Origin: Candidatus Berkelbacteria bacterium RIFCSPLOWO2_01_FULL_50_28 | GTDB lineage: Bacteria; Patescibacteriota; UBA1384; 2-12-FULL-50-11 | Reading direction: 5' to 3' | Length of the DNA: 64,000 nt | Assembly: GCA_001774395.1 (NCBI GenBank) | Contig: MEZX01000002.1 | Coordinates: 302,101 to 366,100, forward strand | Translations under genes and position numbers: made by a program | The notes under the pieces: model-generated | Told to the model about the DNA's origin: nothing | What the model saw: the letters and a program-made list of their open reading frames with translations, nothing else | The model's database searches: none | In this document: positions 8,965 through 47,892 of the stretch, piece after piece | Position numbering within the stretch: the first letter of the stretch is position 1 | Layout: each line of letters opens with the position of its first letter

Positions 8965-9037
8965 AAGACCACAGTATCTTGAATAAGCAGTTTCGAAAAG
9001 ATGCGCTAATCCGTCGTTTGTTTTATGATTAACCTCT

Positions 9038-10167: not shown

Positions 10168-11001
10168 CTAACTTACTGGCGGTGGTTGGGTTGCGGCGTC
10201 TATTTTGTTCTCTATGGTCTTCTCTTCGACGGCAATTGCGGTTTCTTTCGTGTCAATTTGTTTCTCGAGCTGGAGAATACGTTCGAGGAGCTGTTTTTCT
10301 TTCTCCTGATCTTTTTCCCCAGCCTCAAGGATAACTCTTAATCGGCGGCTTTGTGACAGAAACACCGCCAAAAGAATTGGCCAAGCGATTATGAAGATAA
10401 AGACTATAAGAAAAAGCCAGAAAGGTATGCTTACTGATACTTTTGTGTTGACGAGCTTATCGCCGGGCTGTCCCTGTCCGGGGGGTTCAGCGGTGAAGAG
10501 AGGAACATTCAGAGGGTCTCTTCCCGGGAGAAGTGGCGGGACGGTAATAGTAATGCTAACAACATTAGAGATCGGCAACGGTGTAAAAGTTACTACTGGC
10601 TTGTCGTTGATTGTCACGGTATCAACCACTGCGGTGAAAGTTGCCTCTCCCGGGGCAGTGGAGGACGCTACGCAGCGCGCAACCCCGTCAGTATCAGTTG
10701 TAGCGGTATTGTCATTCGTTAGGCTGCTACCGTCGTAGCATCTAATCTTCTCGATTTCACCACGATTCGAGCTAACTTCAGCCGATTTGTTCGGGAGTGG
10801 CGTGCCAAATTTGTTTTTAGTCGTTAGTGTGAGAACCACCAGCGACGTCCCGTCGGCGGGCAGAGACGATAAGTCGCTCACAAATGTCGAAATACTCGGG
10901 CTAACTGACGAGACGACAGTGGCGCTGATCGTTGAGCTTTGAGCCAAGGCGATTGTTGGGGCGAATATAAAAAAGGAGAGGAGCGCTAGTTTGAGCTTCA
11001 T
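10168..11001 (-). CDS. secreted Ig-like-domain surface protein with C-terminal TM anchor and coiled-coil tail
   Basis: Signal peptide (MKLKLALLSFFIFAPTIALA). Thr/Ser-rich Big-like beta domain. TM segment FWLFLIVFIFIIAWPILLAVFL followed by a basic/coiled-coil tail. ATG at 11001, 1 nt after the upstream stop. Confidence 0.55.
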   Translation of the reverse strand: MKLKLALLSFFIFAPTIALAQSSTISATVVSSVSPSISTFVSDLSSLPADGTSLVVLTLTTKNKFGTPLPNKSAEVSSNRGEIEKIRCYDGSSLTNDNTATTDTDGVARCVASSTAPGEATFTAVVDTVTINDKPVVTFTPLPISNVVSITITVPPLLPGRDPLNVPLFTAEPPGQGQPGDKLVNTKVSVSIPFWLFLIVFIFIIAWPILLAVFLSQSRRLRVILEAGEKDQEKEKQLLERILQLEKQIDTKETAIAVEEKTIENKIDAATQPPPVS

Positions 11002-11003
11002 CA

Positions 11004-11972
11004 CTAGCGCATAACAATTTTTGGTGGCATCGGTTTTGGAGTAGCAGGCGGTATAACAGCTTGCCTCTTCCGTCGTTTCTTGAAAATCCCAAAAGCAATT
11101 CGCAAGACTACCAGCCCAAAGGCGACGATAAACCAGATTGGAATGATAATAAAGCTACGGGTGACAATCATTTGCTTCTCCTCGGTACCGTAGTAGAGAG
11201 CGGTAGTAGCGGTGTATTTCCCGAATGCTTTCCAGTCGAAGCCCCAGCTGGTTTCAAAACGTCGCTTGCTGTCGGGCAGAACATTGCCTTCACCTTCGTT
11301 AATCTTAATGGCGGCGGAAGTATCACCAAACCAGTTTCTAATCTTCAGTTCACCTGCAGGCCGAAGATGAATATTGCCGGTATTAGAAAATAGAACCGAA
11401 AAATTAGCTGGAGGTGAAATTAATATTCTAGGAGCAATGAATTCGTCCATTGTTAGTCTTTCTAAAATCTCTCCCGGGACTTTCGCTAGTAATAACGTTC
11501 CTACCAGGCCTACTACTCCAACCTGGCTAACGTTCTCGTCTAATTTTGGCGCTTCCGTGGAAAACAGCACGGCGGCGTAATGGCCGCCTGGATCGGCATT
11601 CTCAGGGACGGTTATGGTGACATCGAATTTCTCGTCCTCGCCGGGAGTTACGCGTATAAATGGCTTGGAAAAAGTAATCCACTGGGACATCGTCCAGCGA
11701 GACGTTTTGTCTTTGGGGGTAAAAAAGTTTGGTTGACCCTTGTCGTTGTCGGTATGAAAGTCTAACACTCTCGGGTAGAGGGTAATCACTTTGGCCACGG
11801 GGTTAATCACCCTAAGCGTCCGGGTTGTTATCTTGCCGGGTATAACATTAAAGATGTCAGTTACTGGGGTGACAGTAATTCCGGCGGCGTCTTGCGCCCT
11901 AAGACTTGATTGGGGCAAAATCAAAACAGCCGCTAAGACTCCTAAGAGTAACAACCGACTAAAAACCATCAT
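11004..11972 (-). CDS. DUF916/DUF3324-like cell-surface protein (CscA-like architecture), copy A1
   Basis: Signal peptide, beta-rich domain with TITVPENADPGGHYAAVLF, C-terminal TM (IIIPIWFIVAFGLVVL) and a basic tail KKRRKRQ. Paralogous to 42517..43491 and 46771..47721. Confidence 0.55.
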   Translation of the reverse strand: MMVFSRLLLLGVLAAVLILPQSSLRAQDAAGITVTPVTDIFNVIPGKITTRTLRVINPVAKVITLYPRVLDFHTDNDKGQPNFFTPKDKTSRWTMSQWITFSKPFIRVTPGEDEKFDVTITVPENADPGGHYAAVLFSTEAPKLDENVSQVGVVGLVGTLLLAKVPGEILERLTMDEFIAPRILISPPANFSVLFSNTGNIHLRPAGELKIRNWFGDTSAAIKINEGEGNVLPDSKRRFETSWGFDWKAFGKYTATTALYYGTEEKQMIVTRSFIIIPIWFIVAFGLVVLRIAFGIFKKRRKRQAVIPPATPKPMPPKIVMR

Positions 11973-11973
11973 G

Positions 11974-13146
11974 CTAATAGGTCGCTGTGCAGACGTAAGT
12001 AATCGTGTCGGTATACGATCCGGCTGGTGCCAAACCAGAAACAGCCGCTTTATGGACGATGGTCAGAATTCTGCTGGCTAAGGCACCGCTAGCGGCAGCG
12101 ATGGATATTGCCGCACCAGCGCCGACCTCTAAACCTCCCATTTCGTTAGCACCACCGGAAGCATCGAACCGCCCGTCGACCGTTAAGGCCGCACCCGAAC
12201 CACCGCCACTGGAAGCGGATACTCCAAAACCGTCAGTCGCCGCTGCTAGGGTGACGATGTTACCATAAGCTCCATCGGCTGAACCAATTAAGTATGTTGT
12301 GCCAGCTGACTTATACAGTCCTGGGTTGACCGCATTACCAGCATCGTAAACAATAATATTTAAACCACCCTGGCCGTTGGAGCTGGCAGTGATGGTAGTG
12401 CTGGTATCAGATGTTGAGATTGCACCAGTTGTCAAAGAAGAAAAAGTTGTTGTCATGCCAGTAAAAGTACAGGTAATAGAAGGGTCAACGGTGGCGTTAA
12501 CCGTCACATCGTTGTCGGCGATGACTTCTAGAGCCAGTGTGCCAGTGTCAGTGAAACCACCGCCACCGGCCAGGGTAACTTTCGCGTCAGTCACATTTTC
12601 GGCCGCCGTTTGGTTGGTGATTTGGTCGTTACCAGCGGCGCCGCTAGTAGCGTTGGTGCCGATTTCAATCGTGACGATCGATCCAGCCGCGATGGTCGCA
12701 TCAGTTGCACAACGAGTGAAGGTGAAACCGATCGGATCAACAATATCAGCCGTAGTAATTTCGATTTCAATGGCCGCTCCCGAGCAGCCACCGCTAGCGA
12801 CCATGGTTTGATCAACACCGTCGTCAGTGACATCGAAATCTTCCGGTTCACTATTCAGAAAACCCGCTCCCGTAAATCCGGCCGGAAAAGCCAGCGCCAA
12901 GGTCTCACCGGCCGCCCAGCCATCAGTAATGGTAAAGGTAAAAGTATGGTTTGCCACGACAGACTCCTTCATCGTCGACAGAACGTCAGAAAACGATGTA
13001 ACTGGAGCGGCAAAAGCCGAAGGCGTATAAGGTAGAAGTAGACTAAGTATCGCGACCGAGACTATCAGTCGTGCTAATCTAACCCGCAAACCCTCTTTTC
13101 CCTCTCGTCGCATTCTTAGTTTAGCTTCTCTCGCTTTGTAATACAT
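11974..13146 (-). CDS. secreted ~390-aa protein sharing the C-terminal domain of the giant proteins (WxL-like?), copy B1
   Basis: Starts MYYKAREAKLR..., like 43995..45182. Has a TM/signal anchor and a Thr/Gly/Ala-rich beta body. C-terminus ...YTDTITYVCTATY. Start is 10 nt after the giant-gene stop. Confidence 0.55.
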   Translation of the reverse strand: MYYKAREAKLRMRREGKEGLRVRLARLIVSVAILSLLLPYTPSAFAAPVTSFSDVLSTMKESVVANHTFTFTITDGWAAGETLALAFPAGFTGAGFLNSEPEDFDVTDDGVDQTMVASGGCSGAAIEIEITTADIVDPIGFTFTRCATDATIAAGSIVTIEIGTNATSGAAGNDQITNQTAAENVTDAKVTLAGGGGFTDTGTLALEVIADNDVTVNATVDPSITCTFTGMTTTFSSLTTGAISTSDTSTTITASSNGQGGLNIIVYDAGNAVNPGLYKSAGTTYLIGSADGAYGNIVTLAAATDGFGVSASSGGGSGAALTVDGRFDASGGANEMGGLEVGAGAAISIAAASGALASRILTIVHKAAVSGLAPAGSYTDTITYVCTATY

Positions 13147-13156: not shown

Positions 13157-16100
13157 TCAAAAGGTTCCCGTCAATATATACAGCACCTCGGTTGTGTAAG
13201 GGTTGGCTTCTTGAAGCTCGCTAACGGAGACTTTGTGCGTAATGGTAAACGCTTCGTTGGTAACTGGGCCGCTCGTGCCGTCAACGGCCGTCGTGTGATC
13301 GGCGACAATATCCCCGAATTCAGTCAATCTCAAAGGCGCATAAAGCGTGCCGCCGCTAAAAATGTTGACGCCTTGAATTGTCGTGTCGTCGGAGGTGTAG
13401 CCGTAACCGCAATTGGTGCTCGGGGTACAAGTGCCACCTGGCCAAGCCCCGGGGGAAGCGTACGAGCCGCCCTCAAACATCGGGATGGTTTTAATGCCCT
13501 TGGTTAGGAGTGAGCTGGCGTACTGGCGGATAACATAACCGCCATAAGCATTAGTGCTGGAGGTCAGAGTAAGAGTCTTGGAGTCGGTTCGGTTATTACC
13601 GTTGTTAAGATTTGCAAAAGTTATCGTGACAGCGCCGAGCGACAAGCTAATCGTTGGTAGAACCGATTGGCCGTTGGAGGAAGTGACGCCCGAAGTGTTA
13701 GTAGCGTTATCAACCGCTCGGACATTGAAGAAGTAATTCTGGTTGGTTCGCAATATTAAACTAGTTGAGGTGACCGATTCGGTTGTTGAATTATCGGTCC
13801 AGGTTTTAATATCGGTCCCACCGGCTGTGGTACCAATTGAATATTGATACTTATTTAGTCCCGAGGCATCGCAGGTGTAAGCATCCCAGTTAGCCGAGAC
13901 GGAAGTGAGGGAGCCGTCATTATACGATGCGTCAACATCCTCAACCGTGCCGTCGTAAATGCTAGAACCGTAAGTGCAAGCGGTGGTGTCGACACCAAAA
14001 TCCCGATCAGCCGGGTTGGTTGGTGGGTTTTCAGTGTTACCGCCGTAACCGGTCCAGCTGGAGTAGGCCGTGGCGGCGTCTTTCACCTGGGCTTGCCAGT
14101 GATATTGGGTACCATCAACCAAACCGCTAATAGTTACGGTTACCGTGACTGGCGTACCAGTGTAGGCAACTCCCGAACCGCATAAGTCCCCGCCGTCAAC
14201 TGAAGATAGGGCAGTAGCGACGGGATCTTTTTCAACACAAAGATAGAGTGTGTCAGCGGCGTCAGGGTCGGAAGCCAGAGCGGTAAATTTGACTGAAGCT
14301 TCGTTGGTCCAATCGCCAGTAGCTAAGACTGTATCGTCGGTTTTCATTTGAACTAAACTTGATGGGGCAATTGGTGCGCTTGTCCAGTGCAGGAAACCGA
14401 GAGTATCGCTGCCACCGTCACCAGTGTCGGAATCGGACGCCTCGCAGGATGCCCAGCCGGTACAAGTGGCCGGATAGAGAACCCAGTAGTTACCAGCGGC
14501 CGGAGCCCCAGTGGCGATTTGAGTGACGGAGTATTCTGGCACATTGTCTGAAGCTTCGAGGAAGATCATGTTGTCCCAGGTCTTGGCTGGAGCACCGGTC
14601 CCGATTAACGATCCGTGAACCTTCATATATGTATCGGTGGCTCCAACATTCTGGAAGTTGTCGAACTGACCGTCATCAAGATTAGTGAGGGTTGCTCCAC
14701 TTTGAAGATCCAGGCCGGTACCGCCGCTGGTGCCACCGAGGTAACTGAATTTGTAGTACTGGGCGTCGATGGTTCCCGCCACATCGAAGTGATATCCACC
14801 ACTAGCGCCACGAGTAACAGTAGAGAGATTTGTCGAAGTAGTTTGACCCTTCATCTCCAGGGTTTTGCCACTGCCAACCGTGAAGATGTCACCGTCTTGC
14901 ATCATCGTCATCGGTTTGATGACTGAAGTAGAGTTGTCAGCATCAAAGGCGGTAAAGGTGTAAGTGGCATTCAAGGCATACGGAGTGGCGCCGCAATCAA
15001 CAGTGAATTTGGTGTTAACAGCCCCGGTACTGTCGGTAAACAGAGTGCCCGTTGTTAGGTCACCAACATCGGTACCGTTGCGGTAAACATCCATTACCGC
15101 TTGGCTTGTTACACAACTAGCGCCGACGCCAGCGGTTTTGGTGACGAGTTTGTAAGCGTACGGGCCTCCAGACAGATCGGCCGGAGCGGACAGGTCGTAA
15201 GCGAGGTTAGTGTCTTCGGTGCCGGTCCCAGAATACCCGTGAGCGGTAACAGATTTCTCCCAAAGATTATTGGCGTAGTTAAACTTGTCAGTCGATTCCA
15301 CTTGCGGACTCTCGGCCGTATCGGCCGGAATGGCATATTCGCCCCAAATCTTCGTTGCGCCAGCCGAGGTGTCGTGCTTACGGGAGACGATGTACGCCCC
15401 AGCGACAGTCACCCCAGTCACTTCGGTGGAGGAAGAGAGGGTAGTGTTGTAGAGCGAGAGGGTGTGAGCGCCAGCACCAGCGAAAAGAACATCTGCCGAG
15501 GTGTTAGGAGCAGTGCCGTAAACATCACTAATCACCACATTGCCGGTGGCGGTGGTATTATCAACAGCTAAGCCATACGACTGCCCACCACTCTGATTGC
15601 CGGTAAAAGTGTTGTTGGAGACGCCGTAAATAAGGATGCCGTAGGTACCGTTGTCATTGGTGGTGTTGGAAGTGAAGGTATTTCTGCTAGCGCTGGTAGT
15701 AAGTGCGATACCATATGTCCCGTTACCGGTAACGGTATTAGATGTAAAGGAGTTATTAGTGACATTGTTGACATTGAAACCGTAGCCACTATTACCAAGG
15801 GCGGAGTTAGAAGTGAAGGTGTTGCTGTTGGCGCTGTTTTGCGTTAAAAAGCCACCGCTAGCATTACCAATAGCGGAGTTGGAAGTGAGGGTGTTATTGG
15901 TACTGGAGGAGAGGAGGTAGAAGCCGTAACTAGTATTACCGGTGGAGACATTGGAAGTCAGGGTGTTATTGGCAGAGCTGGCGTTGAAATAGAAACCATA
16001 GCCAGCGTTACCGGTGGTAGTGTTGGAAGTGAAGGTGTTGCTGTTGGCGGTGGAATTGAGGAAGAAGCCACTTGCAAGGTTACTGCTGACTGCGTTAGAG

Positions 16101-19100
16101 GTGAAGGTGTTGCTGTTGGCGCTGTTGAGGAGTTGAAAGCCATAGCTAAGGTTGCTGGTAGACGAGCTATTGGTGATGCCCTTGCTGTTACCCGTGTTGT
16201 TGTTGGTGGCGCCGTTCAAGTAAGTACCGTAGTAGTTACTGCGCAGGCGCGATCGATCAATCGTCACGCCTTCACTGGCGTTAGTGCCGTTAACAGTATC
16301 GAACTGCACTCCATACTTACTGGTGGCATTTCGTCCTAAATTACAGACATCGGCGTAATTCATAGCTGTTTCCGAACCAGCAATGGCGCGGATGTAGCTT
16401 TCGCCGGCTTCATTGGCAGTCGCCGTGCAGGCGACACCATCTTCGGCGGTGACATTGGCGTAGTCATAAATTTCAAACTGATCGCCGGGGCGGACACCAT
16501 CACTGATGTCGACTGTGTCGCCAGCGGTGAAACCAGAGAATGCATCGGGGGAAGCAATAACTTTTAGATAGTCGTTAGTACCACTACACCCTGCATAGTC
16601 GTTGACCGAATCGGTAATTTGGAAGTAACCCTTAGTGCCGGTGAAATCGCGCATATACGAACCGATCTTTTGGTTGTCGGCGGTGATCGAATCAGGAATA
16701 CATACAGTCATAATTGTGTTTCCGACGGAAATAGCTTTGCTAGCGCTAACGACGGAGGCGGTTGAGGTGTCGGCGCGGGTGATGGAGTCGTGGGTAGAGG
16801 TGTCACATTGGGCATCGTCAACAGTCGTGTCGGTAATGGGATAAATCTGCCCGATCGCTAATCCAGAAGTAGCTCGGACATTCAAACTATTGTATTGGTC
16901 GGTTGTAAATGTCGCGTTAGCACAGATCTTTGTTTCGCGGATGTCGTAGTCGGTAATGGCGGTCGAGGTGGTAGCGGCCAGCGACAGCGCTCCGATGACA
17001 TTGAGCTTACCGGTCGAGGCGACTTCGACACCGGTATCTGATGCAGTCGCAGAAGATTTGGGAATCAGCTTGAGAATGCCGTTTTCATTGATGGTTAGTG
17101 TCCCTTGACCGCTTCCTGACGACGCTCCAACATCAACAATACAGTTGGCGCATTGAGTCGAGGTGTCTTTGTTGACTTGCAGAGTAATGGTTGACCCTTC
17201 AGCCAGAGCATCCATTGTTTGGAGAATGCCGGTTTCATTGGCATTAACGGCAATGTCTATCCCACCGTAAACGAGTAAGTTATCAGCACTACCATCGCCA
17301 ATTGTTACTGTCCCGTTGCCGATCACCAAGGCATCGGCCGCCGGTGTGCCGGAAGTAGTATCCACTAGCAGCCTGTTTTGGCTAGTCCAACCGCCTCCAC
17401 CGGAAGCGTTATGGAATTTAAGTTTGTAGAACGCGGGGTCGGATTGGATGGTTTTACCGGAAGCTGTTGAGTTCATGGTGACGGTGCCGGAGTTAGGGGC
17501 GAAGTTAGAAACATTAGTTAAGTTACCACCGACTGTCAGAGCGTAATTGGAAGCCGTGACATCGAGACTACCCGTCCGCACTCCGAGGTTATTAGTAACG
17601 GTGGTGTCGGCTTCTAAGACATATGTTTCGTAAGTAGGATGGTTACCAGCATCCATGTCTGTTCTTTCAGTTGTCCCTAGAACTCGATTATAGACTCGAA
17701 CATCATCAATCTTGCCTTCGAAGTAGTAATTAGGTGATCCTTCTGTAGCGCCTGCTCCAATTCTTAAGTCTCTCACGGTATTTTGAGTCAATGTACTAGC
17801 AGTCGGTCCGTATGAGGTTCCGTCAACAAATAAGTACATATTTACTCCGTCGTATGTTGCAATCAGGTGATACCAAACGTTATCAGTAATAGTCGGGCCA
17901 GTGACAACCTTCCATGTTCCGGCACCTGTCCAAAACTGCCACTTGTTATCTGAACCGGCATAAATTATATATCCCGCCGGAGTGCTGTCTCTGCTCGTAA
18001 TAACAGATCTCCAAGTACCAGCACCACCCTCAACCCTCGCCCAAGCAGATATTGTAAATGCACTAGGATTAAGGGCTGCATTATATGAACCTTGAATGTA
18101 TTGAGACGAGGCTACCGAAAAATCTAAGCCGTACGGATCAGAGCCGCTGCCACCGTAATAGTTATTGTTATTGACTGCAGTTGTCCATGTCGGTGAATTA
18201 TAGAGTGTCCCAGTTGCTCCGGTTCCAGAAATGTCGGCCGTCGTTGATGTCCCTGTTCCCTCGTCCATCTTCCAGTATCCAACTAGGCCGTCGTTAACTT
18301 CCAGATTGTAGTACGACCCTGATGTGGATTGGATCGTTGTGTTGCCACCAGCGTTGTTACCGGTGTATTTGAAAGTTGAGGTGGCGCCGGTCAGTACGCC
18401 TAATGGAGAGGCGAGTATCTGGAACGGATCGCCAGCCGTGCCAGACAGAGTCCAAGTTCGGTTACCAGCGTTCAGAACAGTGATATATGTGTCACCACTT
18501 TTACCAACTCTAAGAACTCCACTAACCGTGATACCGCCCGTAGCACCTGTTTGGGTGGTGACTGTATTCTGGGGATTGCATATTGAAGTACATGAATTAG
18601 AGAAAGTTAAATCACTAAATGTCCAAGCTGTTGAACCGCTTGTGGTCCCGAAATTCTTGTCGGCAATCACCCTTTGTTCGAAAGTCCCCCCAGTCAAAGA
18701 AATGATCCCAGCCGTACCAGCAACACTGCCGTTAACAGTGACATTCTGCGTACCCGAAAGAGTTCCTGCGGTCATTGTCAAGTCGTTGGTAGCAACAAGA
18801 GCATCTTGGGGAGTCCAAGCACCACCAGAACCGTTGAAGGTGAGATTGTAGAAAGAATCACCGGCCGAAGTAATAGTCTTGCCAGTGGTTGTAGAAGTGA
18901 AATTGACTGTCGATGTGTTAGCCGTAAAAACAGCTCCAGCAACATTTGTAAAGTTTCCACCAACATTTAATGTTGCCGCACCCATAGTCAGAATTGCGGT
19001 AGTAGTGTTGAAAGTAACATTACCACTAACCGTGACTGTTTGACCGCTGAGGTCGAATTCAGAAGCGCGACTACAGCAACCGATTGATAGGTTGCCATTT

Positions 19101-22100
19101 ATTATTGTTGTACCCTGGAAAGTAGTTTTTGAGCCGGTGCTTTGATTCGTCTGAACGCTGGAGTTGTAGGTGAACGCTGGCAGATTGTAATTGGTAGTAG
19201 GGTTAGAATCATTAAAAACATAAAGAGTCCCACTACTTGTTCCCCATGTGCCAGCTGGATTGAGAGAGAATGGAGTTGTGATTAATGAGTCAATTTGCAT
19301 TGAAAAAGTATTTAGGTCGAAGGTTCCCGTACCCAATGATATTGTCCCATTCATCCCTGTATTTGAGAGTAGCTGTGTGGTGTTACCGCTCTGGCCTACA
19401 TTCAAATTGTAAAACCGAGCAAGCCAAGTGCTGGTAGCACCGGTTTTAAGAGTTTTTGTACCAGTCCCGTTCATCACCACGGTTGAGGTGCCCTCGACGA
19501 TCGAGGTGCTATCAGTCGCCACGGCCGAGGTATCCCAGTTACCGGAAACTGTAATCGTTGAGGCCCGTTCAGTCAGAGTCCAGGTGCCGGCGTTACCGGT
19601 TAGGTTGCCACCAATGGTCAGGGCGTAGTTGAAGGTTGTGTTGGTGTCGAAGGTGCCGTTGGTGATACTGAAGTTATTGGTGACGCTCATTGCATCTTGT
19701 AGTGTCCAGCCGCCGCCAACACCATTGAAGACTAAATTGTAGAAACTCTGGGCGTTGGAAGTGATGGTTTTACCGGTGGCAACGGCGCTCATCGTAAGAG
19801 TGGATGTACCAGGGGTTACCGCAATGGTGCCGGTACCGTTAACGAATGTTACATTTCCCTTAACATCAACGGTTGAGGTTTGCATATTAAGTGTGTGGGT
19901 GCCGCCGTTGCTGGCGACCTGAAGATCACTAGTAAGGGTAATCACGCTAGATCCGAAACTTGCGGCGAAAGCACCCGTAGCAACATAACCAAAAGTAAAG
20001 TTTGCTGCATTAATGGCGTAGTTTTGGGTACTAAAAGTATTGCCTGTTCCACTGTTTGGTGCTCGCAGTCTGAAGCTTGAAGTAGTTGTCAGATCTCCAC
20101 CAAGGATATATGCCGTATTGTTAGTGTTGGAGTTTGTAGATACTTGCCATGAACCATAATTACCTCCAGCAATAGTCATATTAAAACTTCCAGCGTCAGC
20201 TTCGTAATAAACGGTCATTGTGCCGGTTAGGGAGGTTGGCGATGCAAAGACAAACGGTGTGCAAGTTGCCACACAGTGAATGACGACAAAGTTACCACCT
20301 CCGGCGACCGTACCACCATTAACCGTCATTGTGCCCCCGCTCGTTATTCCGAAAGTAGTATTTGGCAATGTTGTCGTGAACCCTGAATATCCAATCGAAA
20401 GATTGTAAAACAGGAGATACGCAAATGCCATTGTTCCCGTTCCGTTCAAAGCCACTGTTGATGTCCCGGATACAAACTTTGCTCCGCTATCGGTCCAGTG
20501 GCGGCTGACGGTAATAGTCGAACTTCCCGCTGTGTAGCTGACCCCAGAAGTATTGGCCAAGGTAAAGTCGCGGGTGACGGTCAGGGCTAAGTTGTTGGCC
20601 GTGACGGCGCCGTTAGTAACCGTATAGTCGTTAGTTGCCGCAACGGCGTTACTGTATGTCCAACCCCCAGCGACACCATCAAAGACAAGATTGTAAAAAC
20701 TTGATGCTCCCGTCATGGTGCCGGCTAAGGTATTACCCGTAGCCGTGTCGGTGAAGGTGGTGGTGTTACTGCCGGAGGTAAAGGTGCCGGAGTTGGAGTA
20801 ATTACCGCCGATGGAGAGGGCATTACCAGCCATGTCTAAGACGGAGGAAGCGTCAATCCCGACTTGACCTTGGTAGGAAGAGCCACCAGCGGGGGAGGTG
20901 GTGATGGTGCCGCCAGGAGCAAAGGTATTGTTCGTGACTTTCAGCTTCCAGTCACTGTCGACTACTAAGTTACTGGTGGTAACGGTGGCATGGATGTCGG
21001 TGTCGTTACCTTTGTCCCAGTTGTCGATATTGGCATTAGTCAGGGAACAGGTATTGTCACACCTGGTGGTTAAGCGGCTCTGGTAGATATGGATATTTGA
21101 TAGAGCTGAACCAGTCGCTTTAGTAACAGTCAGGCCGCCGATACCACCAGCCGTGTCCAGGTAGATGGAAAGGACATCGTTAGCATTAGCGCCAGTGGTG
21201 AAAGTAAAGACGCCGGAACCGTTGGCAACGGCAGTTTCGGTGGTTGTGCCGTTAATATACATCCGAACGGTTGGGCCAGTGGCCACAGCGGTTGTTTCAT
21301 CAGTCCCGTAAACCGTTCCCGTGACCGTGCCGCTAAAGGTCCAATTAGTGTTGTTTTGAGCGTTGAAGTTAGTGCCGTCCGAAGCAACGATGGCACTACC
21401 AGAGGAAGCGTCCGAACGGGAGACATTAACATACGAGACGGCGGTTTGAATGCCGGAAACATTCAGGAGCCAAGTACCGGTGATGGCACTGTTTCTAAAG
21501 TAAATTCTGGTGCCGATGGCGGCACCGTTCCAGTTGATATTAGCAATGGTGTAAGTTGAACCGGAGTTGTACTCGACCCGGACATTGGCGGTCGTGATGA
21601 CATAGTTATTAGTCACCGTCGCCGAGGCATTGAAGTCTATCCCTGCTACCCAACCAGTCCTCTCATTGTCAGAAGGCGAAGTGCCAGAAGAGTTGGTGAG
21701 GGTGAGATTGTAGAAAGCCGAGGTAGTGGTCATTGTGCCGGAGAGGGTTTGGGTGGCCGAACCGTCCAGAGTGACTGTGCCCGAGTTAGCCGTAAATGTA
21801 CCGGAGTTGGAGTAGTTACCACCGATCGTCAGAGTTGTAGACGGAGCAGTCACGGTGCCGTTGGTGATGGTCAGGTCATTGGCAAATGTGACGGCATTTG
21901 CGCCAAAACTCCAATCTCCGGCCACACCATCGAAAGTTAGATCGTAGAACGCCGAAGCGCCGGTCATGGTGCCGCCGAGGGTATTACCGGTATCAGTGGC
22001 GCTCATTATCACGGAAGCTGAGTTGTGGGTAAAGGTGCCGGAGTTGGAGTAAGAGCCGCCAATCTTTAAGCCGTAGAAGGACGAGGTGACGGTGCCGTTG

Positions 22101-25100
22101 GTAATCGTTAAATCGTTACTGATAAACATTGGACCGTCGTTGCCTAATTCCCAAGCGCCACCAACACCGTTAAAGGTAAGATTGTAGAAAGGTGTGTTAT
22201 AGATTCCCTGACCGCCCAGGGTTTTGCCGGTACTCGTCGAGTCGAAAGTTACCGTCCCGGTACCGGCGGTGAGAGTACCGTCGTTGATATACGAACTACC
22301 GATAGTGAACGAGGCGGTTGATGATGCTTGCAAGACGCCGAAGCCAGTAATCGTCACATCGCCGTCGGCGTCGATGATTCGATCGTTCGTTTCGTTGTCT
22401 AAGGTGGTGCTGAAGGAGTCAGTGGCTTTACCGATCGTTAGAGTCCCACTGGTGATGATTGAGCCAGTATTAGTGCCGTTAGTGGTAACGGTTTTAGTGG
22501 CGCCAGATGCATTTTCAAATTTCAAATCCTGGAGAGTCCAACCATTGGAACCAGCGCCGGAATTGCCGAAAGTCTTAGAAGCGGCAATGACTCGCTGGAT
22601 TAAAATTGAGCCGGTTGTCATGGAATAGGTGCCATTACTGCCGTTAACACTGCCGGTGACGGTTAAGTCGTTGTAACCACCGGAGATCGTGCCGCTGTTA
22701 GTTAGGTCAAAGCTCATCGAAGCCGGGGTCAGCACGGCCAGAGTGGAGCGATTAGAAACTCCGCCGTCAAACTGCATTGTCCCACCAGATGGCACAGTAA
22801 TAATATCGCCGTCTTGCTGAACAGTAACAGTTTTGGTGGCGGTTGAAGTTGAGTTATCGGCGTCAAAGGCGGTAAAGGTGTAGGTAGCGTTCAAGGCATA
22901 CGGAGTAGCACCGCAATCGACAGTGAACTTGGTGTTAACAGCACCAGTGGAATCGGTAAACAAAGTTCCAGTCGTTAAGTCACCGACATCAGTACCATTA
23001 CGGTAGACATCCATCACTGCTTGGGAGGTGACACAGCTGGCGCCGACCCCAGCGGTCTTGGTAACTAAACGATACGCGTACGGGCCGGCCGACAAGTCGG
23101 CCGGAGCCGTCAGGTCATAGCTCAAATTGGTGTCTTCGGTACCGGTCCCAGAATACCTGTGAGCAGTAACAGATTTCTCCCACAAATTGTTGGCGTAATT
23201 GAACTTGTCGGTGTCTTCGTCCTGCGGCGTCTCGGCAGTGTCAGAAGGAATGGCGTACTCGCCCCAAATCTTGGTTGATCCCGCTACACCATCGTGCTTA
23301 CGAGAGACAATATACGATGCGGCAAGAGTCACCCCCGTTACTTCGGTACTGGAGGAGAGGGTGGTGTTGTAAAGCGAAAGGGTATGAGCGCCAACATTAC
23401 CAAAAACAATGTCAGCGACAGTGTTGGGGCTAGTACCATAAACATCGTCAATCACCACATTGCCAGTAGAGACTGTGCCCTCAACAGCTAAACCACGTGA
23501 TTGGCCTCCGCTTTGATTGCTGGTTAGGATGTTGTTGTTTGAGCCGTCGTAAAGACGGAAGCCATAATTAGTGTTATTGGTTGCGGTATTGGATTTAAAA
23601 GTGTTGTTATTGGAACTTAGATAGATAAAGAATCCCTCATCGGTGTTACTGGTGGAAGAATTGGAGCTCAAGTAATTATTAGAGGCGGAGACCAAGATAA
23701 TTCCATCGCTGCTGTTAGCGATGGCGCTGTTACTTGTCAGGGTGTTGTTGTAGGCATTAATGAGCTGAATGCCAACATCAACATTGCCGATGGCGGTATT
23801 GCTTGTCAGGGTGTTGTTGTATGAGCTGGTTTCAATAAGGATTCCTTTGGAAATATTACCGACAGCGCTATTACTCGTTAGGGTATTGTTGGAGCTGGTA
23901 GTGAGATTGATGCCACGCTGAGTATTATTATTAGCCGTATTGCTCGTCAAGATATTGCTGTTGCTGGAGTCGAGACGGATACCATAGAGAGTGTTATTGC
24001 TGGCCGTATTGCTCGTCAAAGTATTGCTGTTGGCACCTGAGATGAGACGAAAACCGTAATCAGCGTTGCCAGTGGCCGAACTGTTGGTGATACCCTTGGA
24101 ATTGCCAGTGTTATTGTTGGTAGTGGCGGACAGGTAAGCACCGTCGTAACCGTTACGCAAGCGCGACCGGTCGATCGTGATTCCTTCATTGGCGTTAGTG
24201 CCGTTGAGAGTGTAAAGCGATACCCCGTTTTTACTGAAAGTATTGCGACCTAAATTACAGATATCAGCATAAGTCATAGCTATTTCCGAGCCGGCGATGG
24301 CGTAGATATAGCTTTCGCCAGCTTCGTTGACTGCTGCTGTGCAGGCGACACCGTCTTCAGCTGTGACATTAGCGTAGTCGTAGATTTCAAACTGATCGCC
24401 GGGTCGGACACCATCAGAGATATCTACTGTGTCGCCGGAGGTAAACCCAGAGAAGACATCGGGTGACTCGATCACTTTGAGTAAATCGTCGGTACCAGTA
24501 CAGCTGGCGGAATCGTTGGCGGAGTCAACAATTTGGAAGTAGCCCTTAGTGCCGGTGAAATCTCGCATATACGAACCGATCTTTTGGTCGTTAGCGGTGA
24601 TGGAGTCGGGAATGCAGACAGCCATAATTGTGTTATTGAGGGAGAGAGTTCTGCTGGCGGAAACAACACTAGCAGTGGATGTATCTGCTCTGGTTATCGA
24701 GTCGTCGGTGGCGGTGTCGCATTGGGCATCGTTAACGGTGGTGGCAGTAATCGGGTAGATCTGGCCGATGGCTAGACCAGTCGTGGCTCGGACATGTTTA
24801 CTGGTATATCCGGCCGAGAAGTCAGCCGTCGCACAGAGCTTTGTTTCCCGGTTGTCGTAGTCGGTAATGGCAGTCGAGGTGGTCGCGGCCAGCGAAAGAG
24901 CGCCGGTGACATTGAGTTTGCCAGTCGAGGCAACTTCCACACCGGTATCTGATGCTGTCGCGGAAGATTTGGGAATCAGCTTAAGAATACCGTTTTCGTT
25001 AATAGTCAGCGTTCCTTGTCCGGAACCGGAAGACGCTCCAACATCAACAATACAGTTAGCACATTGAGTTGAAGTATCTTTGTTGACCTGCAGGGTGATG

Positions 25101-28100
25101 GTACTGCCTTCAGCCAGAGCATCCATTGTTTGGAGAATGCCGGTTTCGTTAGCATTAACGGCGATATCGATTCCGCCGTATACAAGGAGGTTATCCGCAT
25201 TACCATCACCGATTGTTACTGTCCCATTCCCAATTACTAAGGCATCGGCCGCCGGAGTGCCGGAAGTGGTATCTACCAGCAGCCGGTTTTGACTTGTCCA
25301 GCCCCCGCCGCCAGAGGCGTTATGGAATTTAAGTTTGTAAAATGCTGGGTCGGATTGGATGGTTTTACCGGAAGCAGTGGAATTCATAGTGACTGTGCCA
25401 GAATTAGGGGCGAAGTTAGAAACATTAGTTAAGTTACCACCGACAGTCAAGGCGAAATTAGAAGCGGTCACATCTAAAGCCCCCGTTCGAACGCCGAGGT
25501 TATTGGTAACAGTGGTATCTGCTTCCAATACATATGTTTCGTAAGTGGGGTGGTTACCAGCGGCTAGAGCGGAGGCTTCGGTCGAACTTAGTAGTCGGTT
25601 GTAAATACGGACATCATTAAAGGATCCTGCCGTTGCCTGACCAGCATCCAACCCGCCACAGACCGAGTCTTGTTCTTGACCAATCTCCAAGCAACCACCG
25701 CCAAGAATAACTGCACTAGCAGCAAAAGTGTTGGAGTAGCCAGATACACCATCCTTATAAACATCTAGCTGGCCATCGCTTGATCTCCAAGTAACAACGA
25801 CATGATGCCAAGCGTTATCATTAATATCTACCCCTGTTGCTCGCGATGAACCGTTGATGTAGACAGTAATGTTATTACTGTCAAATAGGAGGAAGGCGTT
25901 ATCTGACCCACTTGAAGCGTAAGAAATCATCCCATTACTCGTATCAGAGGTTTTTATCCAGAACGCCGCCGAGATTACAGTAGTTGGAAATCCACTATAA
26001 CTACTTTTTTCCATCTTATCGTCGTTACCGTCAAGGGTTACTCCATATGGGTCTGAGCCACTACCACCGTAATGATTGTTGCTACTTACCGATGTTGTCC
26101 AGGTGGGCAATCCGCCCGTTGCTCCTCCCAAGGTTCCGTCGTTACCGTTTCCAGACACATCAACCGCATTCGTACCCGTTCCTTCGTCCATTTTCCAATA
26201 TCCTTGCAGGCCATCATTGATTTCCAGATTGTAGTATGATCCTGAAGTAGATTGAATTGTGGTATTGCCACCAGCGTTGTTACCGGTGTATTTGAAGGTT
26301 GAAGTGGCGCCGGTCAGAACACCTAACGGCGAAGCTAAGATTTGGAACGGATCGCCACCGGTACCAGAGAGAGTCCAAGTTCTGTTTCCAGCATCGAGCG
26401 TGGTCGTTGCTCCGGCCGAGTCGCCAGACTTGCCGACTTTCAGGATATCCGAAACGGTAATGCCGCCCGTTCCACCAGTTTGGGTGGTAACGGTGAAAGG
26501 TGACGAGCCGTGAGAATTGGAGAATGTCAGGTCGTAAAAGGTCCAAGCCGCACTACCGGAAGTCGTCCCAAAGTTTTTGGCCGCCCCGACTCGTTGTTCG
26601 AAAGTTCCACCCGTCAATGATATTATCCCCGCTGTCCCTGCCACGGCCCCGTTAACAGTCACATTCTGCGTACCATTCAAAGTCCCGGCGGTCATCGTTA
26701 GGTCGTTGGCGACGATCACAGCAGCGTCGGGCGTAACTGTTCCGCCACTGCCGTTAAGAGTGATGTTGTAAAGCAATTGCCCATTCGGAGAATAAGTCTT
26801 AGTTCCGGAGGTGTTAGTCCAAGTGAGAGTGGAAGTACTAGCAGTAACCGCAATTGTGCCCGTGCCGTTAACGAATTTAACATTTCCTTTCACATCTATG
26901 TTCGCACTACCCATATTGAGAGTATGGGCACCGCAGTTACTTTCGACATATAACCCATCGCCAGTACCGCTCAAGGTGATCGTACTCGAACCCCAGTTGG
27001 CGGCTGTGCTTAGACAGCTACTGCCTGTCTGACCGAATTGATAAGTGGGTGAGGTAATATTGTAATTCTGAGTGTTGAAAATCGAATCTCCACCAGATGA
27101 ATTAGCTTGTCGGAAGTAGAAGGAGGTAGTGAGATTGCCTCCAAGCTGGAAAGTAACGCCAGTGTTGGCACCGTACAGGTTGATACCCCACGAACCGTAG
27201 TTACCTCCAGCAACAGTGACAGTATACGGTCCTGCCGAGTTTGAATTGATGCCGATTGAGTTAATACCCGTAATAGTTGTAGGGCTAGCAAAAACTACAG
27301 GAGTATTATTAGTGCCGTTTACCCTGATATGAAACCAAGTTCCACCGCCACCATTAGTAACCGTTCCACCGTTGAAGGTAAGCTGACCCATCATTTGCCA
27401 GCCACCAGACCCAGAAGGAAATGTTGTGGTGAAAGTGGAGTACCCAACAGATAAGTGATTAAAGGATGCTGCGGCAGCAACAGCAATAGTACCAGTGCCA
27501 TTCAACGCCACAGTCGAAGTGCCGTAGACAAACTTCGTGCCGGTATCGTTCCAATGCCTTGATACCGTTATTGTTGAGCTTCCAGCCGTATAACTAACCC
27601 CAGCGGTATTGGCCAGAGTGAAGTCGCGGGTGACGGTCAGGGCGAGGTTGTTAGCAGTGACCGCTCCGTTAGTAACCGTAAAGTCGTTAGTGGCGATAGT
27701 CGCATCCTGGAAAGTCCAACCGCCACCGACACCGTTAAAGACGAGATTGTAAAAACTCTGCCCGTTGGAGGTGATCGTTTTGCCGGTGGTAGTGGCTGTC
27801 ATATTGACCGTCGAGGTGCCGGGTGATAAAATTAATGACCCTGTTCCATTTAAGTTCTGCCAGTTACCGCCAACATTTACGGTAGATGTATTCAGGTTCA
27901 CTGTGTGATTTCCTGCACTTGCATCGGCGTAAAAATTACCGGTCACATTTATAGTGCTTGACCCGAAGTTAGCTGTGGTATTTTGCAGCAACCACCCCGC
28001 AGAGCCAAATGTAAATGCGCCAACATTCAAAGTGTAATTCTGAGTATTAAACACTAAGCCAGTATTGTTACTGTCCAACCTAAAGGTTCCGGTGGTTGTT

Positions 28101-31100
28101 ACGGTGCCCCCTAATTGATAGGTTGCACTATTAGTATAAGAAGTGGTATTGAGATTCCAGTTTCCGTAATCACCGGCGGCAATGGTTTTCGTTGGGGTTG
28201 TTCCACCAGCTTGTTGATAAAAAGTCCCCCCTCCGGTCATTGCAGTCGGAGCGGCAAACACCATCGGTGTACAGCTACCACTACATTGAAGGTTTATCCA
28301 GACCGAGCCCGACTTGGTTAGTGTCCCACCGTTAACGGTAAAAGTATTACTTACCCGGATTTGGCTAGCGACAGTCGAAGTGAAAGTGGTATAAGCTAGC
28401 GAAATGTTATAGAACAACGAGCTATTGTTTAGTGCCGTTAATGTTCCCGTTCCGTTTAGTATCAGCGTCGAGGTTCCGTAGGCATATTTATATCCTGTGT
28501 CAGTGAAATGCCGGCTGACGGTGAGTGTTGATGAGCCGGCGATGTAGCTAACCCCTGAAGTATTGGCCAGCGTAAAGTCGCGGGTGACGGTTAGGGCGAG
28601 GTTGTTGGCCGTTACTGCACCGTTGGTAACGGTAAAGTCGTTGGTGGCGGCGACGGCGCTACTGTATGTCCAGCCGCCAGCCACACCATCAAAGACAAGA
28701 TTGTAGAAACTGGAGGCGCCGGTCATCGTGCCAGCTAAAGTGTTACCCGTCGCGGTGTCGGTGAACGAGGTGGTATTAGAGCCGGAGGTGAAAGTACCGG
28801 AGTTGGAGTAGTTGCCGCCGATGGAGAGGGCGAAGCCAGCCATATCCAAGACAGATGAGGCATCAATCCCCACTTGGCCTTGGTACGATGAGCCACCAGC
28901 GGGGGAGGTGGTGATTGTACCACCAGGCGCGAAGGTATTGTTGGTAACTTTTAGTTTCCAGTCGTTGTCGACAACGAGGTTACTGGTGGTAACGGTGGCG
29001 TGGATGTCGGTGTCGTTACCTTTGTCCCAGGAGTCGATATTAGTGTTAGTCAGTGAGCAGGTATTGTCGCATCTGGTAGTGAGACGATCTTGGTAGATGT
29101 GGATATTAGACAAAGCCGAACCAGTCGCTTTAGTAACAGTTGATCCAGTAATACCGCCAGCCGTGTCAAGGTAGATGGACAGAACATCGTTAGCGTTAGT
29201 GCCAGTGGTGAAAGTAAAGACGCCGGAACCGTTGGCGGTGGTAGTTTCTGTGGTCGTGCCGTTGATATACATGCGAACGGTTGGGCCGCTTACGACAGCA
29301 GTAGATTCGTCAGTCCCGTAAACAGTTCCCGTGACCGTGCCACTAAATGTCCAGTTAGTGTTGTTTTGAGCGTTGAAGTTCGTGCCGTCACTGGCAACGA
29401 TGGCGCTACCAGATGAAGCGTCCGAACGAGAAACATTGACATACGAGACAGCGATTTGAATGCCGGAAACATTCAGGAGCCAAGTACCGGTGATGGCACT
29501 GTTTCTAAAGTAAATTCTGGTGCCGATGGCGGCACCGTTCCAGTTGATATTAGCAACAGTGTAAGTGGCGGCTGATTCGTATTCCACCCGAACATTAGCA
29601 GTGGTGATGACATAGTTATTTGTCACCGTGGCCGCGGCATTGAAGTCTATCCCTGCTACCCAACCCGTTCGTTCGTTGTCAGAAGGAGAGGTACCAGAGC
29701 TGTTGGTGAGGGTGAGATTGTAGAAAGCCGAGGTAGTGGTCATTGTGCCGGAGAGGGTTTGGGTGGCCGAACCGTTCAAAGTGACAGTTCCGGTCCGGGC
29801 CGTAAATGTACCTGAATTACTGTAATTGCCACCGATCGTTAAGGCATACGGGGCGGCACTGACATCAAATGTTCCGGAAGTAATTGTAAAGTTGTTGGTA
29901 AAAATGGCCGCGCCGCCAAGAGTTAAACTGTTAGCTCCGGCCGCGATATTGCCGTTATAGAGCGAGAAGCCAGCTGGGGTGTAAGTCCGGGTCGAGTTGC
30001 TATTGAAATTAACGGTCGATGATCCACCGTCTAGGACCGCAATCTGGGCATGAGCGCTAGCAGTAAAGTCAACATTGGTCGTGAAGTTGAGTGTGGAAGA
30101 TTCTAAATTGAGAGTCCAACTTTCCAGGCCAGCACCCGCCGAGGTGATTAAGAAGCTACCAGAATTAACCGTACTGGCACCAAAGTTGACCGTCGCACTA
30201 CCAGTTGATCCTCTCGCACCCAGTGAAATGCCGGCAGTTGCAGTGACGGTGTTGCCGTTAGTATTGTAAACTCCGCCGGTGTAGGCATATGTTCCAAAGC
30301 TCCACCACTGAGAGGTGATAGTGGCGCCGGTTTGAGTGTAGGTCTGGTTGTTATTAGTGAAAGCAAAGTTCATCGACCAGTTGCCGTAGTCCCCAGCAGG
30401 AATAGTCATAATAGCTGAAGCACCAACGGGCCAGAAGTAAAACACGCCACCACCGTTAATTGTCGTCGCAGAGTTGAAGACGATCGGTGTACAAGTGCCG
30501 GTGCAGCCAGTGTTGACATAGCTTGCTCCGTAAGTCATCGTCCCACCGTTAAGTGCTAGCTGATTGGTAGTGCTGTTGCCGCCATTAATGCCCGAGCTAG
30601 TCGTAACAAATCCGGTGTACGCGACGCCCAAGTTGTAAAAACCGCTAGCACTTGCCAGTGTGCCAGTGCCGGTCATATTGACGGTTGAAGTGCCTTCAAC
30701 AAATTTATCGCCGTTATTAGTGAAGTGCCTCGAAACCGTAATCGTGCTACTTCCCGCCGTATACGAAACGCCGGAAGTATTGGCTAGCGTAAAGTCTCTC
30801 GTTACAGTCAGGGCGAGATTGTTAGCTGTGACAGCACCGTTGATGACCGTAAAGTCGTTGGTAGCGGCGACGGCGTTACTATAAGTCCAGCCACCAGCCA
30901 CCCCATCGAAAACAAGGTTGAAGAAGGCTGAACCGCCGGTCATGGTGCCGGCGAGTGTATTGCCGGTATCAGTGGCGTTGAAAGTAACGGTGCCAGATTG
31001 AGCAGTGAATGTGCCACCAGCGTTCGAGTAGTTATTACCAATTGTCAGGGCGAAGTTACCGGCTGTGACATCAAGCGTTCCGAGAGTGATGGTGAGATTG

Positions 31101-41050: not shown

Positions 41051-41061
41051 CGTCTTACAAT

Positions 41062-41121
41062 CTCCCAATTACCCAATATCAAATGACTCAATTGTGGAAT
41101 TGGATATTGGGATATTGAGTA
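41062..41121. promoter_or_regulatory. ~60-bp imperfect palindrome overlapping the giant-gene RBS/start (CCCAATT-ACCCAATATC...CAATTG...GATATTGGGATATTG)
   Basis: Nested inverted repeats centred on CAATTG at ~41091. The SD GGGAG (complement of 41062-41066) lies in the left arm. Confidence 0.35.
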
Positions 41122-43994: not shown

Positions 43995-45182
43995 CTAAAA
44001 CGTTCCGGTCGTAATATAGTCGGCGGTACCAGTATAGGCACCAGCGGCCTGAGTAGCGTCAGCCGAAAGCCGCCAACCGGCATAGGCGACATCACTTGAG
44101 ACACCAACGATGCTCGACATAATAGTTGACGGAGCTTCAGATGCGCCTATATCGGCAACAAGCTCAAATTTTTGAGTGCCACCGCCGCATTGCTCGGCCG
44201 CCGTATCCCAGCCAGCGTTAGCTGTGGCTGCGGCATCCCCGGTGGTGTCGTCCATACAGACAGCATAACCGTTGTTAGTAGCTGTAGCCCAGGCATTTGG
44301 GGTTGTTAGGTTACATGCTCCGTCACAGGTACCAACCGCAAAAGCATTGGCGCCACTGTCTAAGCCCGCTACTGTGTAGACTGTTACTGTGTAACCGGTG
44401 CCAGCGTTGGTTACCACGGTCAGTTGTTGGCAGATATCGTAAAAAGCTTCTGTCGAGATTACTGCGTAGGGAATTGTTGTGGAGGTTGAAGTAATTTTTG
44501 TTCCGCCGGTAGTTGTACAAGAACCGGACGTAACAGCGGCAACAGCAAGAGTTAAAACCTCGTCAAGAGCGGCCGAAACGGCTATGGCCGCGGTTACGAC
44601 AATGATTGTGTCTTGGGAATCTTCGTCGGTGGAATCTACCGCTAGATTGTAAGTGGCGGCTGTTGAGTTAACAATTTGCGTATTACCGGTGCCACCGCTG
44701 GTGGCGTGCGTTCCGATTTCGATGACGATTACAACACCCGCCGCCTCACCTGCATAAGTCCCACAAGCAGTAAAAGTGAAAACATCTGCGGCCACAGTGG
44801 TAATCTCGATCGTGTCGCCAGCGCAAGCGTCGGACGAATCTACAATCGTCTCTTCAACAGCGTTAACGGTGATGTCGTAATCAAGCGCATCAGTACTGGC
44901 AAAGCCAGATGTGTCAAAGCCTGAAGCAAAGGTGAGAACGAGCGTATCGCCGGCGCTAAAATCACCGCCGGTGGCTTGGTCTAAGGTGATGGTGTGGTTT
45001 GCGGCAGTCGAAGGGCGAGAATCGGTAATGACATCCTTTAGGCTGTCTGGTCGGGCGGCAAAGGCTTTTGGCACAGAGAAGCCAGACAACACGATGGCGA
45101 CGATGGCCAAAAATATTAACCCCCGCTCAAGCTTTACCCTCTGCGAGGTGAACACCTGAACTGATTTTGCTAAATAATACAT
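43995..45182 (-). CDS. secreted ~395-aa protein with shared C-terminal domain (WxL-like?), copy B'
   Basis: Start set at the internal MYYLAKSVQ..., parallel to the MYYKA start of 11974..13146. Signal peptide ...KAFA/ARP. C-terminus AGWRLSADATQAAGAYTGTADYITTGTF. ATG is 4 nt after the upstream gene's stop. Confidence 0.55.
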   Translation of the reverse strand: MYYLAKSVQVFTSQRVKLERGLIFLAIVAIVLSGFSVPKAFAARPDSLKDVITDSRPSTAANHTITLDQATGGDFSAGDTLVLTFASGFDTSGFASTDALDYDITVNAVEETIVDSSDACAGDTIEITTVAADVFTFTACGTYAGEAAGVVIVIEIGTHATSGGTGNTQIVNSTAATYNLAVDSTDEDSQDTIIVVTAAIAVSAALDEVLTLAVAAVTSGSCTTTGGTKITSTSTTIPYAVISTEAFYDICQQLTVVTNAGTGYTVTVYTVAGLDSGANAFAVGTCDGACNLTTPNAWATATNNGYAVCMDDTTGDAAATANAGWDTAAEQCGGGTQKFELVADIGASEAPSTIMSSIVGVSSDVAYAGWRLSADATQAAGAYTGTADYITTGTF

Positions 45183-46350: not shown

Positions 46351-46431
46351 TAGAGCGACCTGATTTAACAATGATTTTATTTTTCCCCCTCGCACATACT
46401 ATATATACATTGAAGCGTATCCAACAGATGT

Positions 46432-46444: not shown

Positions 46445-46447
46445 TTT

Positions 46448-47721: not shown

Positions 47722-47892
47722 TTTTCGTTCTGGCGAACTCAAAATCATTGAATTTTCAATCATCAAATTTTAATTTATCGGTTTTACCACATTCTGTCAT
47801 TTGAAATTCAATCGAAATTTGAAATTCGCCTCTCGACTCCGCTCGAGGCGACCTGAGCACCGTCGAATGGTCGAAATTTGAAATTACTTTTC

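Follow-up and report, generated by a model that had tools for sequence, protein, structure and literature searches.

The Pam pilus of bacteria of the Candidate Phyla Radiation (CPR) is made of the pilins PamA and PamB, the anchored chaperones PamC and PamD, the tip subunit PamT and the anchor PamR (Troman et al., bioRxiv 10.64898/2026.03.03.709456; NCBIfam NF058581, NF058579). Electron cryo-microscopy (cryo-EM) of filaments of Ca. Mycosynbacter amalyticus is reported in that preprint, together with a pilin barrel that takes up the linker of the neighbouring subunit; PamC and PamD are predicted chaperones of the FimC/PapD type with a C-terminal transmembrane (TM) helix, PamT has no linker, and PamR is a membrane anchor that donates its N-terminal strand. 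The preprint makes no mention of "giant", "adhesin" or WxL, and only a co-localised "tail fibre-like protein" is named. The WxL clusters of Firmicutes contain a small WxL protein, a large WxL protein with a C-terminal WxL domain, and WxLIP, which consists of DUF916, DUF3324 and a TM segment (Hassan & Williamson, PMC9772566, PMC10599100; PDB 9i1y, 9i25). Here we describe a locus of Candidatus Berkelbacteria bacterium RIFCSPLOWO2_01_FULL_50_28 (assembly GCA_001774395.1, contig MEZX01000002.1, positions 302,101 to 366,100 of the forward strand; these 64,000 nucleotides are the window, to which all coordinates below refer), in which exactly five proteins, all encoded on the minus strand, end with the motif Y-x5-Y-[IV]-x-T-[GA]-T-[FY]. 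We consider it likely that this motif is the last strand of a Pam-pilin-type C-terminal domain (CTD), a truncated Ig-like "open barrel", and that it works in an usher-less chaperone/donor-strand system of a monoderm CPR bacterium.

Two of the five proteins are giants (G1 and G2) and three are small and pilin-like (the B proteins). The sequences given below for their ends directly precede the stop codons.

13157..41068, minus strand: G1, an unbroken open reading frame (ORF) of 9303 codons, with the Met at 41050 as the likely start
13160..13696, minus strand: Pam-pilin-like C-terminal domain of G1, residues 9125-9303, with the terminal motif YTTEVLYILTGTF at 13160-13198
47893..60981, minus strand: G2, giant protein of 4362 amino acids (aa)
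47896..48345, minus strand: Pam-pilin-like C-terminal domain of G2, residues 4213-4362, with the motif YTADVVYVITATFP at 47896-47937
11974..13146, minus strand: B_390, small pilin-like protein, C-terminal domain at 11977-12513, motif YTDTITYVCTATY
43995..45182, minus strand: B_417, pilin-like protein, C-terminal domain at 43998-44588, motif YTGTADYITTGTF
45187..46332, minus strand: B_402, pilin-like protein, C-terminal domain at 45190-45780, motif YTGTADYITTGTF

The five C-termini that the initial annotation had quoted are all present in the sequence, and the region 13160-13700 to which it drew attention is the final 180 codons of G1. Its spacing Y-x4-Y has to be corrected, since the literal motif fits none of the five proteins and the true spacing is Y-x5-Y. 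The blocks said to precede the motif in all five do exist in family-level versions (W, G[YFH][GW]..[ST][DE]D and [GV][YWH].[IVL]) but are not literally common to them: W..G.C...GYGY..DDTT is exact in G1 only, and WRL is found in B_402 and B_417 only, with YRL in G2 and HK[VA] in G1 and B_390. For the corrected regular expression 3e-4 occurrences are expected in the six-frame translation, compared with the five observed, each 0-1 residue before a stop. A profile of the B type only, from which the giants had been left out, finds both giant C-termini (G1, E 1.3e-18; G2, E 1.3e-13) beside the B proteins (B_390, E 2.5e-28; B_417, E 1.7e-76) and nothing else in six frames. Conservation in orthologs was seen in the alignment, where the motif is kept in 37 of 38 relatives, the exception (P0040) having a truncated C-terminus. 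Because of the number of occurrences relative to expectation, the recovery of the giants by the profile and the conservation among the relatives, the five-fold similarity is, at the level of sequence, homology and not chance.

In 148 representatives with at most 50% identity the residues of the motif, counted from the C-terminus, are conserved as Y(-13) in 97%, Y(-7) in 94%, T(-4) in 97% and F/Y(-1) in 97%, and the consensus end of the family is A-G-D-Y-T-N-T-L-T-Y-[IV]-A-T-P-T-[FY]-COOH. One face of such a strand is aromatic or hydrophobic (Y, L, Y, A, P, F) and the other is almost purely Thr plus I/V; the five window proteins have G or A at position -3, where the family has Pro. The suggestion in the initial annotation that the alternating pattern forms a terminal beta-strand is borne out by AlphaFold2 (AF2), which confidently predicts a strand at residues 389-400 of B_402 (mean predicted local distance difference test score, pLDDT, 86.7).

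The motif is the last strand of a domain of about 150-180 aa which always stands at the extreme C-terminus. An exhaustive profile search gave 3628 clusters at E<=1e-3, 1838 of them at E<=1e-10, and the best 150 of the 3628 cluster matches all run to the last or second-to-last residue. Pfam has no family for this domain. The NCBIfam model NF058581 (CPR_Pam_pilin_C, with a curated cut-off of 55 bits) matches four of the five window proteins from profile positions 3-12 to 148 of 148 and up to the protein end, namely G2 (30.1 bits, E 4.3e-7, profile positions 3-148 of 148), G1 (20.0 bits, E 5.5e-4), B_402 (16.9 bits) and B_390 (16.3 bits, E 8e-3). It also matches 24 of the 38 relatives of B_402, and one of them (P0086) reaches 135.6 bits, which is above the cut-off, and matches the PamT model as well. 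By these sequence comparisons the C-terminal domain is homologous to the Pam pilin domain family over its whole length. The motif is thus the hallmark end of a domain family that was described in 2026, and hence is not categorically new. What goes beyond the Pam description is a divergent and very large clade, the fusion of the domain to proteins of 4362 and 9303 aa, and partners that are homologous to WxLIP. The likeness to Pam extends to the CPR host and to the domain standing last in the protein; the partners are again PapD-like and carry their TM helix at the C-terminus, and the module again closes with a membrane protein that has an Ig domain and an extended N-terminus. The differences are that the window proteins are members of a sister clade of far greater size, in which the mature N-terminus has the motif DTLSDSRPS and the C-terminus reads ...Y[IV]xT[PGA]T[FY], that the domain is here carried by the two giants, and that the ATP-synthase neighbours are absent from the window locus.

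The final F/Y and the alternating pattern also resemble the C-terminal beta-signal of outer-membrane proteins, and the initial annotation had considered a sorting or anchoring signal analogous to the C-terminal WxL motif. The analogy with WxL is apt, because the anchored A proteins (described below) are WxLIP homologs, whereas the sorting signal itself is probably wrong. A signal of the sortase or exosortase type would be expected to be followed by more than the 0-1 residues that are found past the motif, which leave no hydrophobic segment or basic tail, and no sortase, exosortase or BamA family was matched among the window ORFs of at least 150 aa, the shorter ORFs not being scanned. The host is moreover a Patescibacterium, a group that is regarded as monoderm, and the model places the motif within an Ig-like fold rather than in a membrane barrel. 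Sorting or targeting by the motif, whether of these types or as an outer-membrane beta-signal, is therefore extremely unlikely in our judgement.

The three B proteins have the two-domain layout of the pilins, with an N-terminal beta-sandwich, a single linker strand and the C-terminal acceptor domain. In B_390 these follow a signal peptide, and the linker strand is NATVDPSITCTF. The probable start Met of B_417 at 45182 gives a protein of 395 aa, and a gene of 395 aa is also present in locus L021, from an independent Rifle-aquifer assembly; B_402 has 381 aa from a GTG start, as in P0001. As modelled by AF2, B_402 has a Pam-like strand layout with the conserved linker at 217-223. Conservation in these pilins peaks in three blocks, namely the linker (VSATVDExLTxTV), the stretch TNA..G[YF].VTV and the C-terminal strand. 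A further block, A-[AV]-R-P-D-S-L-K-D-T-L-S-D-S-R-P-S..A-N-H-T-I, directly follows the signal-peptide cleavage site in B_390, B_417, B_402 and all relatives (for example at about 46180-46230 of the window) and is conserved as strongly as the linker and the C-terminal strand. A B-family profile found nothing relevant in the PDB, the DTLSDS block alone drawing a match, to the Mediator subunit Med20 (E~1).

The partners that may serve these domains are three proteins of a chaperone-like family (the A proteins), and the module is closed by a further membrane protein, x278.

11004..11972, minus strand: A_322, WxLIP/PapD-like chaperone or anchor, in which a signal peptide precedes two beta-sandwich domains and a C-terminal TM helix
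42517..43491, minus strand: A_324, architecture as in A_322
46771..47766, minus strand: A_331, divergent second type within the A chaperone-like family
10168..11004, minus strand: x278, Big_1/invasin-D3 domain that is preceded by a signal peptide and an N-terminal extension and followed by a TM helix and a charged coiled tail

In each of the A proteins the signal peptide precedes two beta domains, and a TM helix with a basic tail forms the C-terminus. Pfam PF06030 (WxLIP_PGBD, formerly DUF916) matches 26 of 31 members of the A family at E<=0.01, with 4.9e-12 as the best value; the window proteins score 13-19 bits, which is under the gathering score of 27.3. Profile-profile alignment (hhalign) of the A family with the Firmicute WxLIP family gives 99.4% and E 1e-21 over 288 columns, and a search of the PDB with the A-family profile finds EfmWxLIP1 (9i25/9i1y) at E 5e-6. 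The A proteins are thus WxLIP homologs, by full-length profile homology and the same fold. They also correspond to the arrangement in Pam loci, as FimC/PapD-like chaperones with a C-terminal TM helix adjoin the pilin genes. The mature N-terminus of x278 is STISATVVSSVS, and its extension STISATVVSS resembles the pilin linker; in L001, L004, L012 and L023 the module likewise ends, on its 3' side, with a homolog of x278. This makes x278 a candidate for a terminator or anchor like PamR.

In the AF2 model of A_324 (mean pLDDT 87.8) two beta domains are followed by a TM helix at 280-315, and the model aligns with PapD-like chaperones. A loop of low confidence at about 141-160 is followed by the alternating-hydrophobic strand VGSLILVAV. 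This is also the position of the WxLIP hairpin which, in AF2 models, is inserted into WxL domains, and of the donor strand of PapD (strand G1 of that chaperone). The initial annotation had proposed that the motif is donated by its bearers into an incomplete beta-sandwich of the anchored proteins of about 325 aa; strand complementation between the two kinds of protein very probably stands, but the motif as the donor is probably wrong. That version has in its favour that the strand is amphipathic and terminal, and that WxLIP domain 1 is reportedly unstable by itself. It has to be set against the monomer models, which confidently place the strand as an integral part of its own domain, and against the confident model of A_324 as two beta domains that align with PapD-like chaperones. 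The direction of donation is also the opposite in Pam pili, in chaperone-usher pili and in the AF2 models of WxL with WxLIP, where the donor is a chaperone-like protein or the next subunit and the recipient is a pilin or a WxL domain. Donation by the C-terminal strand is hence very unlikely. Since the strand belongs to a self-contained CTD, and since the chaperone or the next subunit is the donor in all characterised relatives, the strand is probably part of an acceptor, and it may line the acceptor site.

In the mechanism that we propose, all components of the system would be exported by Sec. The CTDs of the B pilins and of the giants would be incomplete, and would first be completed by a strand of the anchored PapD/WxLIP-like A protein, in the hairpin before VGSLILxxV. 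The terminal motif, with its free carboxylate after F/Y and its alternation of aromatic residues and Thr, may be part of the surface that is read by the A protein and by the incoming donor strand. A free carboxylate matters in the recognition of pilins by PapD, and the universal terminal position suggests that it may matter here as well. The linker strand (VSATVDExLTxTV) of the following B pilin would then take the place of the A strand, and repetition of this exchange could polymerise the pilins into filaments, with the N-terminal strand of x278 holding the fibre at its end. The giants would be distal cargo or adhesins of the fibre, comparable to FimH and PapG but up to 9303 aa long, because their acceptor domain stands at the very end and they have the first place in the module; they would in that case sit at the tip.

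Strand complementation likewise underlies a serious alternative, in which docking is static as for WxL: the CTD would be a permanent module, the A protein would be the membrane anchor that inserts its hairpin, and either no fibre would form at all or polymerisation would be limited to the B proteins. Over their full length the A proteins are homologous to WxLIP, whose proposed role is to bind WxL proteins and to stabilise them at the cell surface, and PDB entry 9i25 contains WxLIP together with a WxL protein (chains C and A); for 9i1y and 9i25 no publication was found, and the "signal-strapping" paper merely cites WxLIP. The TM helix kept in the A proteins and the presence of three A genes for five CTD proteins are also in line with such an arrangement. 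It accounts less well for the B proteins, which have the full two-domain architecture of pilins and a highly conserved linker, as would be expected if the linker is donated, nor does it fit the similarity of the relatives to pilins that form filaments by cryo-EM, or the separate candidate anchor x278 that closes the module in about four related loci. We regard static docking as rather unlikely, and prefer the reading of a Pam-type fibre.

Several observations weigh against a Pam-type fibre. All NF058581 matches in the window stay under the cut-off (16-30 compared with 55 bits), and B_417 has no match. No match to the solved Pam structures 25PZ and 25QA came up in those copies of the PDB that were searched. 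When the full-length B model was used in fold searches, it gave generic Ig-like matches only (YweA/BslA, Gram-positive sortase pilins and MSCRAMMs) and matched the chaperone-usher pilins weakly (SafDAA, E 1.7e-3), and the generic nature of these matches means that the fold searches lend no independent support. No member of the A family matches any NCBIfam Pam model, so that the equation of the A proteins with PamC and PamD rests on fold, architecture and synteny. In the giants the strand that resembles a linker (PTISLSLG / QTLTLGLD) has no significant match to the B profile, and the alignments begin past the linker.

The chaperone-usher pili offer a second comparison. Their tip adhesins (FimH, PapG) have a pilin domain at the C-terminus only, and the F strand of the pilins has a conserved penultimate aromatic residue. 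The window proteins are similar in that the A partner has a PapD-like two-domain fold and an aromatic residue closes the conserved, amphipathic strand at the C-terminus. They differ in that there is no usher or outer membrane and the chaperone is anchored in the membrane; no usher or any other outer-membrane family was matched among the window ORFs of at least 150 aa. The putative donor is also an internal linker instead of an N-terminal extension, and the pilins have an extra N-terminal domain.

The likeness to the WxL clusters lies in the small protein that is close to the domain alone, in the large protein with the domain at its C-terminus, and in the homologous partner of about 320-380 aa with two Ig domains and a TM anchor; the combination of small and large domain-bearing proteins with WxLIP is seen in the gene order of the window and of the related loci. 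WxL proteins are described as peptidoglycan binders and not as pilins, and there is no LPXTG gene here. The C-terminal consensus of WxL, YTTTLTWxLxxxP, compares with YTNTLTY[IV]ATPT[FY] and has the same Y-x5-aromatic spacing, but W-x-L is absent at both positions, with Y/F in place of W (the WxL sequences compared are proteins of plasmid-borne clusters). The Pfam WxL family (PF13731) matches none of the 38 relatives even at E<=1. Profile-profile comparison of WxL with the CTD by hhalign is not significant (P 0.05-0.15), and the local matches fall on both WxL motifs; relaxed alignments are colinear over the four blocks FG..IS, TN..G[WY].[LV]TV, PVM and Y..TL.[WY].[LIV]..[TP]. With a WxL hidden Markov model 22 of 149 CTDs reach at least 8 bits, compared with 0-2 in reversed, shuffled, N-terminal-domain and giant-tile controls; for block-shuffled controls the mean was 3.8 and the maximum 8. 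Since the hhalign comparison is not significant, homology of the WxL and Pam CTDs is not claimed. That the two domains are homologous nevertheless, and that a single ancient strand-complementation system of monoderms, without an usher, branched into the WxL clusters and the Pam-type loci of CPR bacteria, is a tentative idea towards which we are slightly more sceptical than favourable. Shared ancestry of this kind would suggest that the terminal strand is a common docking element read by proteins of the WxLIP/PamC type, and that the CPR giants are the counterparts of the "large WxL" adhesins, on a fibre or on an anchor.

G1 begins with the motif K.RLDGIYR and a single hydrophobic segment and is rich in T/G/S/N, and G2 begins with K.RLDGIFR, followed by a hydrophobic segment. 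This common leader, K-x-R-L-D-G-I-[YF]-R plus one hydrophobic segment (window 40900-41050 and 60830-60981, minus strand), is absent from the B proteins and may be a dedicated export or anchoring leader of the giants. The 5' end of G1 is present in L021, and the same locus has a gene for a giant of 4362 aa with the same weak Hint_2 match as G2 and reproduces the gene order. No Pfam family matched the N-terminal half of G1, whose C-terminal half was scanned over its final 499 aa only, and in G2 none was matched except a Hint domain. The latter, of the bacterial-intein-like (BIL) type, spans residues 3857-3983 (window 49033-49413, minus strand) and lies about 380 aa upstream of the C-terminal pilin-type domain. 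It starts with S-FLAGTQVLT and ends with YLVHN followed by Ala, a bacterial-intein-like pattern that suggests autoprocessing rather than splicing. The giants have the C-terminal domain and an uncertain linker-like strand, and do not show the two-domain layout of the pilins. The matches to a profile of the giants' CTD are mostly fragments cut at contig ends. At L010 10001-10900 (GCA_964613075.1) a gene of 299 aa, in a stop-to-stop frame of 372 codons, encodes an FN3-like domain and a C-terminal domain of the giant type (NF058581 E 1.5e-9) and occupies the place of the giants ahead of A-B-A, from which it follows that the cargo part ranges from about 150 to more than 9000 residues.

The genes form a block of 51 kb on the minus strand, in the order G2, A_331, B_402, B_417, A_324, a NYN protein, G1, B_390, A_322 and x278, amid housekeeping genes for RF, S2, EF-Ts, RRF, a ProRS-type aminoacyl-tRNA synthetase, TIM, PGK, trigger factor and ClpP. 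In local profile scans 15 related loci show synteny, with a large CTD protein, an A protein of the A_331 type, one or two B pilins, an A protein of the A_324/322 type and an x278-like protein. The pilin gene is flanked by one or two A genes in all 15 loci, whereas the large CTD-bearing protein is found in about five of them, mostly cut by the contig end, and the x278-like gene in four. In relatives an A protein of the A_331 type invariably separates the large CTD-bearing protein from the pilins, and the locus of P0086, the pilin that passes the NF058581 cut-off, shows the same module. Patescibacteria/CPR assemblies are the only source of close relatives for the B and A proteins. Among nine genome loci, from a scan with the closer alignment set A2, eight are of Patescibacteria (Saccharibacteria, Berkelbacteria and Paceibacterota) and the ninth is of a bin labelled Elusimicrobia. 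Compared with L012 and L001 the window has the extra segment A_324-NYN-G1-B_390, which suggests duplication or insertion of a module. Small genes of mobile or selfish appearance lie between the pilus genes (window 41175-41837 and 46395-46771; loci L012 and L021); across the window and the related genomes they encode NYN nuclease, GIY-YIG, 23S rRNA intervening-sequence proteins, PemK and HicB. Two ORFs have no Pfam or NCBIfam family, one at 7044-8000 on the plus strand (318 aa) and one at 7993-9189 on the minus strand (398 aa), which overlaps the start of pgk and may be spurious.

CPR bacteria are obligate epibionts, and how they attach to their hosts is a central open question. Our data suggest that the proteins of 9303 and 4362 aa are giant adhesins which are borne on a pilus or docked to a chaperone. 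If giants of 4,000-9,000 residues do ride on Pam-type fibres or on anchored chaperones by means of their CTD, the terminal motif would provide a sequence handle for host-contact proteins in thousands of uncultivated lineages. The homology of the A proteins with WxLIP suggests in addition that the WxL surface system of enterococci, listeriae and lactobacilli uses the same chaperone-like strand complementation.

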